From Octopus vulgaris (Eukaryota), in assembly GCA_951406725.2 (NCBI GenBank), contig OX597816.1, forward strand, positions 168,144,001 to 168,208,000: a stretch of DNA of 64,000 nucleotides. Reading direction: 5' to 3'. The translations under genes and the position numbers were made by a program. This document shows, piece after piece, positions 19,060 through 23,547 of the stretch (position 1 is the first letter of the stretch; each line of letters begins with the position of its first letter). The notes below the pieces were generated by a model. The model did no database searches and was not told the origin of the DNA. It saw nothing but the letters and a program-made list of their open reading frames with translations.

Positions 19060-20304
19060 CAGGGGTTGGACAAAATAATGGAAACACCCAACATATTAGT
19101 ATCATCATTTTGAAATATATATAAAACTGTCAAAAGCTTTATTTTTGTGTATTTTGATTTATTATTAGTGTTGCTTAATATGTTTTGCTAAAATTGCAAT
19201 TTCTTTTCAGATATCATCAGAAAAAGGTAATTAAAATTCATTAAAATGACAGATCTATCGGACTTTCAAAAAGCTCAAATTGTTGGTACTTATATGGCAG
19301 GTGCCAGCATAATGAAAACAGCCGAAATGTTTGGTGTATCAAGAAGTATTGTCTTGAAAGTAATGACAGCCTTTGGAGAAAGAAGGAAAACCTCCTCAAT
19401 GAAACAAAACTCCAGAAGAAAACCAAAACTTTTAGATAGAAAGGATCACAAAAGTACAGCTCCCAAAAATTACTGCAGAGCTTAATGACCACCTTGAGAA
19501 CCCAGTTTCCACAAAAACTGTTTGCCAGGAGCTGCACAAAGCTGGATTTCATGGGACAGCTGCAATCAGAAAACCACTACTTTCAAAAATGAATGTTGCA
19601 AAGCATTTAGAGTGGAGTAAAAACCTACAGAATTGGTCACTAGAGCAGTGGAAGAATGTTAATTTTTCAGATGAGTCATCCTTTACCTTATTTCTGACCA
19701 CTGGCCGAGTATATGTGTAGAGACAGCCAAAAGAAGCATTTGACCCAGACTGCCATCTTCCAACTGTTAAACATGGAGGATCTGTGATGATTGGGGGGAG
19801 GGGGGGCTATATCTTGGAAAACTGCTGGCCCAGTGGTTTCCCTTCATGGCAGAATTAATAGTCAAGACTCTTTAAGCATTTTATCTGATCAAATTCATCC
19901 TATGGTTGTGGAACTTTTCTGGAGAGAAACGCTATCTTTCAGGATGATAATGCACCAATTCACACAGCTAAAGTCGTTACTGAATGGCACGAAGAACATT
20001 CTAGTGAAGTTGAACATCTTATCTGGCCACTACAGTCCCCAGATCTCAATATTATTGAACATTTATGGTTTATTTTAGAAAAACAAGTCAGGAGTTGCTA
20101 TCCTCCACCATCATCACTACAAGAAGGGGAGACTGTTTTAGCTGAAGAATGGTCGAAAATTCCTTTTGGAAACAATTTAAAGTTTGTACGAGTCCATACT
20201 TCATAGAATTCAAGCTGTAATTACTGCCAAAAGTGGTCCTACTCCATTTTAAAATAAATTTGTTTGAAATTTTAAGGTGTTTCCATTATTTTGTCTAACC
20301 CCTG
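19060..20304 (+). mobile_element. Tc1-like DNA transposon, full length but frameshifted
   Basis: TIRs CAGGGGTTGGACAAAATAATGGAAACACC / GGTGTTTCCATTATTTTGTCTAACCCCTG with TA flanks. Motifs FSDES, FQDDNAPIH, WPLQSPDLNIIEHLW. Confidence 0.95.
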
Positions 20305-20793
20305 TATGTAAGTTATAGGCATTTTGAAATGGTTGTCCAGATAAGACTTAACATAATCTTTGTCTTCTATTTTGTCTTCCTTTCTTTTGTAATCTGCATT
20401 TTGAGTTCCATGAAGATATGGGCAGGTATAGTGGTGAAGAATACCTGCACACCCACACACACACAACTAATTGCATACCGATATATATACACACACATTT
20501 ATCATCACAAAAACTTTGTTGGTGCTCTACTCAAAATTTAAACACACTAATCGACTTATACCTAGTAGTCCAAAATATTTATTATTACTAGAAATATTTC
20601 ATTTCTAAATCTCTGGCAGCTTGATAAAGTGAAGGCTTGTTGCCAACTTAATGTGTCAGTCCCAGGAAATGGAAGAATGCTACAGCTATTTAGGCCTGGG
20701 AAATACCGTTTCCAGTAGGCTATGTGACAAAAGCATTCTGTGTCCTTATGTTTTCAAAGGGGAGATAAGCACCTCCACTCAGCAAAGCCAGCT

Positions 20794-20836
20794 TCCAGAG
20801 ACTAGTTTCAGAGTCATTGCCCCTCATCAGTCTGGA
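20794..20836 (-). ncRNA. Minimal type I hammerhead ribozyme motif
   Basis: Minus strand reads TCCAGA-CTGATGA-GGGGCAATGACTCT-GAAA-CTAG-TC-TCTGGA. Perfect 6-bp stem I, palindromic ACTAGT stem III, GUC cleavage triplet. G-U at 10.1-11.1. Confidence 0.75.
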
Positions 20837-21049
20837 GTAGCATGGCTTGCTAGCTGTCAATGCTTATTCACCTTTGAAAACATAGAATTTCAAGTGAAAT
20901 AATTTCACTGATCTGCAAAACTAGAAATATTGCATTTCTAAATCTCTCAGTGAGACTTATACAGTAGCATCACAATAAAGTGATGGTTTGTTGCCAACTT
21001 AATGTGGCAGTCCCAGGAAATAGAAGAATGCTACTGCAACAAACCAAAA

Positions 21050-21402
21050 GTTTTAGGTGTGGAAGTAAGGCCTAGAACTGAAGGGCCTTAGAGTTAACCA
21101 AGTAAAAACCAAAGTCTTTGTAAGAAGGAAAGCAGACAAAACACAAATCCCTTCAGGATTACTAGACATAAACTTAATTCTGTTGGAATTGACTGCTCAA
21201 TCTGTAGAAAAAGTGAATGGTAGAAACTCTATAAGATGTACCCATTGTAAGCTATGTACACATAAGAAGTGCTGCAATATCAAAGGAAAGTTAACTGGGA
21301 GGATAGTTTTTGTGTGTGGAAGATGCACAAGTGCAATAAACACTGAAGATGTACAGAAAATAGATTCCATCACATACTACGGGAAAAAAACTAGAAGTAG
21401 TA
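21050..21402 (+). mobile_element. RTE-like LINE fragment with Cys-rich (PHD-like) insert in the RT C-terminal region
   Basis: 'GLRVNQVKTKV', 'NSIRCTHCKLCTHKKCCNIKGKL....FVCGRC'. Confidence 0.75.
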
Positions 21403-23045: not shown

Positions 23046-23197
23046 TTAAAATAATAATAATTACTGAATTTGTTTTTTAAGCTTAAAAAAGGCTTTTATT
23101 TTACCATGTCTTATTGCAAACTGCTTTCATAAATAAAGCATCTGCAATATATGGTAAACACTGCCAAATTGTATTTGTGAATTTAGATTAGTATTTT

Positions 23198-23330
23198 TTT
23201 TTTTACTGTACTGTATTAAAAAATAAAAAATATTTGTTTGTAAGCTTAAAATAGGTTTTTATAAACTATGTCATCATCATCATCATCATCATCGTTTAAT
23301 GTCCGTTTTCCGTGCTAATGGACGTTAAAC

Positions 23331-23365
<35 letters not shown>

Positions 23366-23438
23366 CATAGTTTATAAAAACCTATTTTAAGCTTACAAAC
23401 AAATATTTTTTATTTTTTAATACAGTTCAGTAAAAAAA
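23198..23438. repeat. Near-perfect inverted repeat centred on a retroposon tail
   Basis: About 23198-23307 is the reverse complement of about 23317-23438. Confidence 0.92.
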
Positions 23439-23547
23439 CAAGGGGGAATGGTTATTATCAATTTAGCTTAGAGACAAATCGATTCAACTTAAGTCTTGTC
23501 TCCTGGAATCAATTAATGATGTAGGGTGAGGTATGCCTATGTGTATG

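Follow-up and report, generated by a model that had tools for sequence, protein, structure and literature searches.

A probable retrozyme copy in Octopus vulgaris, from a hammerhead repeat family with Penelope-like insertion anatomy and a LINE lineage that inserts beside the ribozyme in other copies

The window analysed here, a 64,000-nt stretch of Octopus vulgaris DNA, contains on its minus strand a short repeat with a hammerhead ribozyme motif, and the question it raises is whether this repeat belongs to a retrozyme, to the pseudo-LTR (pLTR) of a Penelope-like element (PLE), or to neither. Metazoan non-LTR retrozymes have been described in coral, mussel (~350-390 bp) and axolotl (Rtz331/353), in a study whose main text does not contain the word 'cephalopod' (PMC7229834), and retrozymes have been read as non-autonomous PLE derivatives (bioRxiv 2026.07.22.740005). 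The locus is most likely one dispersed member, 7% diverged, of a protein-free retrozyme family with a 355-nt unit, a non-LTR retrozyme likely mobilised by PLEs; other copies of this family carry a LINE inserted site-specifically upstream of the hammerhead. In open-access main texts, no report was found of a LINE targeting hammerhead repeats or retrozymes, nor of an octopus retrozyme; Repbase and supplementary files may list such families.

The original prediction placed a minimal hammerhead between diverged direct repeats and proposed about 1.3 monomers of a ~333-bp unit. The direct repeats are present on alignment. Instead of flanking a separate core, they are the overlap of a more-than-unit copy composed of unit positions 293-355, a full unit and a tail, with one hammerhead, in keeping with about 1.3 monomers. 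The period is 351 bp in the window (63-nt repeat, 20624-20686 and 20975-21037) and 355 nt in the family majority; a spacing of 333 bp is seen in the outermost 28 nt alone, ~18 nt having been lost from the left copy. The parts of the locus are as follows.

20588..21037, minus strand: whole insertion (locus L106), ~1.3 units of family A, a 355-nt ORF-less hammerhead repeat
20975..21037, minus strand: first unit, 5'-truncated (unit positions 293-355), 96.8% identical to the family A majority
20624..20974, minus strand: one whole unit covering positions 1-355, with 91.8% identity to the family A majority
20588..20623, minus strand: 3' 'tail', i.e., the beginning of the next unit, ending in AT-rich DNA
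20794..20836, minus strand: predicted canonical type I hammerhead, predicted cut after 20800 (from sequence, family alignment and the PMC4209133 definition)
20747..20885, minus strand: long paired arms by which helix I is prolonged into a rod whose tip is the hammerhead (from fold-back match and folding)
20843..20856, minus strand: unoccupied LINE target site (unit 121-134), 14 nt that are duplicated at LINE insertions in other family A copies

The copy diverges by 7.1% from the family A majority, and its tail has ~18 nt deleted relative to the ~58 nt of intact copies. No flanking target duplication is recognisable by eye. The complete unit (20624..20974) has a circular minimum free energy (MFE) of -112.5 kcal/mol (z -6.3). 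In line with the original prediction, no coding ORF is evident: the sole frame overlapping the unit, 89 aa from stop to stop, belongs to the opposite strand and, judged by eye, does not look coding. Because it has a single hammerhead, the locus is a dispersed derivative rather than one of the tandem retrozymes that bioRxiv 2026.07.22.740005 calls 'active', and would release no circle by itself; it is probably an ordinary, dead copy of a new retrozyme family. Two more very abundant repeat pieces (21048-21157 and 21218-21300, with high summed contig depth) lie directly 5' of the unit, and a pair of 99-nt arms, 98% complementary, 49 nt apart and containing ATC/GAT repeats (23195-23441), resembles two inverted copies of a common repeat. 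A decayed transposase fragment, which we take from its motifs to be Tc1/mariner, lies at ~19230-20305 next to the hammerhead repeat, upstream in window coordinates, and a similar stretch is found near 697-733.

Read on the minus strand, helix I of the ribozyme pairs perfectly over 6 bp (20836-20831 with 20799-20794), and encloses the core motifs CUGAUGA (20830-20824) and GAAA (20809-20806), the latter followed by a palindromic ACUAGU and a GUC triplet. Helix II has 4 bp and a 6-nt loop, with two G-U pairs in the window copy, while helix III is weak and palindromic, with 1-2 bp. The canonical metazoan form is described as having a helix I of 6 bp, a helix II of 4 bp and a 1-2-bp helix III with a palindromic loop, and the minimal form (min-HHR) as having a helix I of 4-5 bp and a helix II of 7-8 bp with an extra nucleotide at its 5' end (PMC4209133). 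The helix sizes found here (helix I 6 bp, helix II 3-4 bp) match the former and not the latter, so that, judged by sequence against these definitions, the ribozyme is a canonical metazoan type I hammerhead. The motif at 20794-20836, its perfect stem I and its palindromic stem III thus stand as first proposed, while the label 'minimal' has to be dropped, as does the premise that retrozymes carry minimal hammerheads, the text of PMC7229834 describing canonical ones. Taken alone, the single copy says little. Within the 64-kb window, the loose core pattern is not above chance (9 matches, a number reached by 10 of 100 shuffles); the 53-nt hammerhead fold is weak (z -1.55); and no Rfam hammerhead family matches the window or six sister-family loci, a silence that is uninformative because the motif has a short helix III. 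The hammerhead is accepted as real because of family conservation and covariation, not single-copy statistics. Because helix III is weak and palindromic, self-cleavage would probably take place as a dimer.

The search covered a 2.8-Gb assembly in 227 contigs. With a 447-nt query, 2,724 first-look candidates were obtained, and among the best 40 of these, which were scored, the best non-self copies are 80-89% identical. A 28-mer near the 3' end of the unit has 95 exact matches dispersed in the genome, and the copy number of family A lies between ~560, a lower bound scaled from the 28-mer, and ~2,700. The unit is therefore not single-copy, as might have counted against the original prediction; its many genomic copies keep a conserved core. 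The majority unit, built from 73 fragments, is 355 nt long, with a median copy divergence of 7.7%. Its circular MFE is -125.4 against -84.1 +/- 5.4 for dinucleotide shuffles (z -7.6; none of 60 as low). Copies are typically shorter than 250 nt and mostly single: two intact tandem cores were found by a strict pattern in 2 of 206 locus records, duplicates included. In contigs of four runs presumed to be RNA, family-like pieces are mostly below 95% identity, as are those of neighbouring repeats.

Three sister families, B, D and E, are homologous to A (50-70% identical, 353-362 nt) and keep the hammerhead and the rod fold via compensatory change. The homology of D and E is seen in global scores of 166-347, against shuffle maxima of 86-113. 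Unit lengths in A, B, D and E (355, 353, 362 and 353 nt) and a GC content of 0.41-0.43 fit the definition of retrozymes as ORF-less repeats of 150-450 bp with less than 50% GC and without LTR, PBS or PPT, and their circular folds have z values of -6.1 to -9.5 against mononucleotide shuffles. Family B (353 nt, 5.3% divergence, 2,840 candidates) is 70% identical to A and has the same ends. In an alignment of 22 A and 22 B copies, 8 of the 14 named hammerhead pairs are altered on both sides, and 87.7% of cells pair. All rows were selected for an intact core, within which they show no variation, and the covariation is essentially one contrast between A and B rather than many independent events. 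Compensatory changes fall in helices I-III, and the palindrome of helix III is retained with different letters; across the whole unit, pairing is kept in 16 of 18 double changes. The core variant U3-A8, described in PMC4209133, occurs in family D and in family F, which is known from one locus. Tandem organisation is more evident in these relatives: hammerheads one unit apart occur in 10 of 28 distinct B loci, a query-biased sample, with up to three hammerheads per array, and family D, whose copies are young (362 nt, 99% alike), includes a locus (L441) with five consecutive units of 360-364 nt. More diverged relatives (family C and an intermediate form; L305, L306, L299) were also seen, and these too are preceded by the LINE described below.

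The way in which family A copies end is informative as to their origin. The analysis covers 81 of the 95 28-mer-anchored segments, the other 14 being in loci already counted in other sets. Their 3' ends fall at two fixed points ~58 nt apart (38 at unit 348-4, 34 at 44-66 and 9 elsewhere), while their 5' ends are scattered; polar 5' truncation together with fixed 3' ends indicates reverse transcription. A head-to-head, inverted, 5'-truncated partner accompanies 49 of the 81 segments, and AT-repeat ends are found in 40, against 8.7% of 3,200 random positions, the insertion targets being (TA)n. Among the 47 inverted insertions, 35 combine a plain end with a ~58-nt tail at the other end, and no insertion ends in two tails or is plain on both sides. 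PLEs have been described with just this anatomy, i.e., a partial tandem, an inverted 5'-truncated arm, a tail on one end and a microsatellite target (10.1101/2021.04.23.441226), and two young autonomous PLE families of this genome show the same, with tails of ~70 and ~45 nt against ~58 nt in the unit. The proposed kinship with retrozymes or Penelope elements is borne out by this anatomy, by the conserved canonical hammerhead and by the ORF-less unit; the best reading of these sequence features would be that family A is a non-autonomous Penelope-like element.

Neither 3' end coincides with the ribozyme cut (position 177), and 20 of the 81 segments, the longest of which has 626 nt, start upstream of unit position 174 and thus cross the cut site uncut. 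The template would therefore have been circular or an uncut multimer, and an uncut multimeric linear RNA explains the copies that run through the cut no less well than a circle. A concentration of 5' ends at the cut, with 7 of the 81 starts at unit 174-181 where 1.5 would be expected, was considered as a sign of cleavage in vivo. It was discounted, because a second, partly overlapping set gave only 2 of 30 and because the palindromic site favours template switching. In the mechanism that fits best, tandem unit copies would be transcribed; the transcripts would likely be cut to unit length by the ribozyme and circularised by the ribozyme and a ligase; and the RNA would likely be pasted into TA-rich DNA by a Penelope-like reverse transcriptase acting in trans, the identity of the helper element and the circular form of the template being presumptive. 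A small hairpin with a conserved stem (unit ~322-337) just before the plain 3' end is kept in A, B, D and E and is a candidate recognition signal for the helper reverse transcriptase; no shared counterpart was found in three autonomous PLE families. The end of the tail (unit 45-62; region 20913-20930 of the window) resembles a branch point and 3' splice site. PLE repeats often overlap an intron.

A parent or helper was sought among the PLEs of the genome. Two young, high-copy autonomous families with intact ORFs (717 aa and ~850 aa; L264, L261-L263) end in (TA)n; the repeat of the 717-aa family carries an atypical hammerhead-like core, and no clear core is seen in the ~850-aa family. Three families (Neptune-like, 850 aa; Hydra-like, 717 aa; and an older Neptune-like one, the labels being given from domain order and motifs) were rejected as parents, as their terminal regions are not homologous to the unit. 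No ORF with RT and GIY-YIG domains bounded by the unit was found among the best 40-150 candidates scored per genome search, and an autonomous parent could be rare and have been missed. Copies starting at unit 121 were likewise tried as joined to a PLE parent and rejected, the adjoining sequence being LINE 3' ends. Beyond the tail motif, no shared ORF-like body was found, all 30 loci continuing into the next unit or the flank. Pieces of PLE ORFs are found nearby at only 5 distinct places in 236 locus records, and the unit is thus not regularly joined to a Penelope ORF, let alone always to a full one, as an ordinary pLTR might have been. Only at L152 does a fragment adjoin in sense: a Neptune-like ORF fragment (L152:958-1601) is joined to unit position 305 at an 8-nt microhomology, a single ambiguous case that possibly represents a template switch naming the helper.

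The LINE 3' ends adjoining family A belong to a lineage that, on junction sequences, inserts site-specifically just upstream of the hammerhead in these families, in copies other than that of the window. Family A copies that start exactly at unit 121 join LINE 3' ends, and those ending at 134 join LINE 5' ends. Across the unit families, the LINE enters 26-33 nt ahead of the hammerhead core. When the genome was queried with the LINE only, 26 of 29 distinct 3' ends and 27 of 30 5' ends adjoined a family A or B unit or the duplicated target word, against a background of 2 of 234 windows; without the loci that prompted the idea, the counts are 22 of 25 and 25 of 28, to be compared with the more than 20% of flanks in one repeat that PMC4494074 asks of a target-specific element. 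Of the six exceptions, five involve a LINE end that is incomplete or interrupted. Both junctions and the target duplication were found in L268, L270, L271, L440, L442, L444, L445 and L447, the duplications measuring 13-20 bp (13-14 in A, at L268 and L270; 17 in D; 20 in E). In an 1140-aa subfamily, the last 3' junction lies in family D at all 8 loci, with the 17-bp duplication readable in four; a 1146-aa copy sits in family E (20-bp duplication) and a 1134-aa copy in family F. The 3' junctions have no poly(A) tail. Contigs in runs of the organisms labelled A, B and E, one of which may be the source species, bridge the LINE-unit junction; none does among those listed for D.

The lineage includes intact young copies, and in intact relatives ORF2 combines APE (PF03372), RT (PF00078) and zinc-finger (PF13966) domains. 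The nearest solved relative of the protein is human L1 ORF2p (E ~1e-33), and pairwise identity to the zebrafish pol-like protein BAC82613.1 is 29%; by sequence, the lineage appears to be of L1/Tx1 type. The closest abundant intact subfamily (1148/1166 aa) is 91.5% identical to the E-targeting LINE, yet has other targets: by eye, none of its 24 junctions lies at a hammerhead unit, nor does any of the 7 long loci with a readable 3' junction. At L437, L438 and L443, 3' junctions show the 1148-aa subfamily inserting with a 16-bp duplication in another multicopy sequence, which has no Rfam match at L437, and junctions of the 1148/1166-aa subfamily point to further recurring targets. At G000:C9:59207521-59250363, C5:29182301-29204019 and C2:73045131-73067602, near-intact LINEs of 5.3 kb follow one another head to tail, as many as nine in an array, with the target duplication between them.

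Three other explanations deserve consideration. The unit could be merely the pLTR of an extinct or unsampled autonomous PLE; its copies would then be 5'-truncated insertions and partial tandems, and it would not exist as a circular RNA in its own right. Such an origin would agree with an insertion anatomy that is exactly PLE-like, with a family A that is mostly short and dispersed, and with the close relatedness of retrozymes and pLTRs (bioRxiv 2026.07.22.740005). It is nevertheless unlikely, given that none of the 30 loci followed past the tail motif enters a shared ORF-like body, that PLE ORF fragments are so rarely near, with one adjoining in sense, and that a closed unit of 353-362 nt is retained in four families, which show head-to-tail junctions and arrays. 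The hammerhead, moreover, is of the canonical type, whereas those described from metazoan pLTRs are min-HHRs or atypical variants (PMC4209133). Far less credible is a chance or dead motif in a satellite or MITE-like repeat moved at the DNA level. The Rfam silence, the unenriched loose pattern and the weak 53-nt fold would suit it, as would the finding that 8 of 9 Xenopus retrozyme dimers remained uncleaved in vitro (bioRxiv 2026.07.22.740005), but the compensatory changes between families in helices I-III, the helix III palindrome kept with different letters, the U3-A8 variant in D and F, the polar 5' truncation with fixed 3' ends and the absence of terminal inverted repeats make it highly improbable.

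The remaining alternative concerns the LINE: one or a few LINE-in-unit chimeras might have been amplified whole by the Penelope machinery, without any sequence-specific targeting. LINE 3' pieces joined to the unit with no upstream target half within 9 kb (L266, L267, L269), a LINE piece adjoining an inverted unit arm (L273), and the lack, among 30 loci, of any short 5'-truncated LINE with an upstream target half within 1.5 kb would all be expected from such hitchhiking. As against this, LINE subfamilies 81-86% identical in ORF2 occupy families D, E and F with differing target sequences and duplication lengths; the duplicated stretch reproduces sequence variants found locally in the host unit (L270, L447); tandems of the form LINE-duplication-LINE are met with repeatedly; and full 5-6-kb insertions with both halves are common though unit copies are so short. 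Amplification of chimeras is, as a general account, distinctly unlikely; it may add copies, because some LINE 3' pieces lack the upstream unit half, but it cannot be the source of the LINE-unit pattern.

R2 elements, mentioned in PMC4209133 and PMC4494074, are site-specific LINEs of a transcribed repeat that carry their own 5' HDV-like ribozyme. The present lineage resembles them in being a site-specific LINE in a presumably transcribed repeat, beside a presumably self-cleaving RNA, and differs in that the ribozyme is that of the target and not of the LINE, whose use of it is hypothetical. It is conceivable, although rather doubtful, that the lineage is specialised on retrozymes and borrows their ribozymes: where an intact LINE has entered a tandem array at its usual distance from the core, the same-strand hammerheads on its two sides (as at L441 and L446) would excise it from a read-through transcript, perhaps in circularised form, with target sequence at both ends aiding return to the same site. 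Such borrowing would account for the conservation, in five target families, of position relative to the hammerhead rather than of sequence, and for 3' junctions without poly(A).

Family A shares with the metazoan non-LTR retrozymes of PMC7229834 an ORF-less unit of 350-360 nt with 41-43% GC, tandem copies, a canonical type I hammerhead with a weak palindromic helix III and a highly self-paired circular fold. It differs in being mainly dispersed and truncated, in being known here from genomic sequence, and in that its insertion anatomy (tail, inversions, TA targets) has been mapped. The pLTRs of PLEs of the Neptune and Hydra clades likewise have partial tandems, an inverted 5'-truncated arm, a tail on one end, a preference for (TA)n and a hammerhead in the repeat (PMC4209133, 10.1101/2021.04.23.441226). 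Unlike these, family A has no ORF, a canonical instead of a minimal hammerhead, a tail of ~58 nt against the 30-40 in print, and no homology to the three autonomous PLE families of this genome. As for the LINE, target-specific Tx1 LINEs include Tx1 in Tx1D, Keno in U2, Tx1-Mar in Mariner-N4, and Kibi/Koshi, their targets being snRNA genes, DNA transposons, microsatellites and some 'satellite' listings (PMC4494074, PMC4640811). The octopus lineage resembles this clade in its APE-RT-zinc-finger ORF2 and CCHC ORF1, in its insertion at one fixed position of a multicopy element, and in its target duplications, re-insertion in tandem and switching of targets within the lineage. It departs from it in that the target is a ribozyme-bearing retro-repeat and that the insertion sites hold the same place relative to the hammerhead from one target family to the next although the local sequence is not conserved.

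The PLE footprint of the family and the retrozyme-targeting LINE are the points that merit follow-up. Mobilisation of retrozymes by PLEs has so far been proposed mainly from co-occurrence and sequence relatedness, and family A shows a PLE footprint copy by copy. The young family D, with 99% identical copies and arrays, is a ready substrate for tests of cleavage, circle formation and mobilisation. Among the LINEs, endonucleases and their differing targets form a natural series of pairs, with ORF2 identities of 81-92%, which is useful for studying the evolution of target specificity. The LINE would add a third tier to the system, in which a PLE helper mobilises a retrozyme and the retrozyme is in turn parasitised by a LINE.
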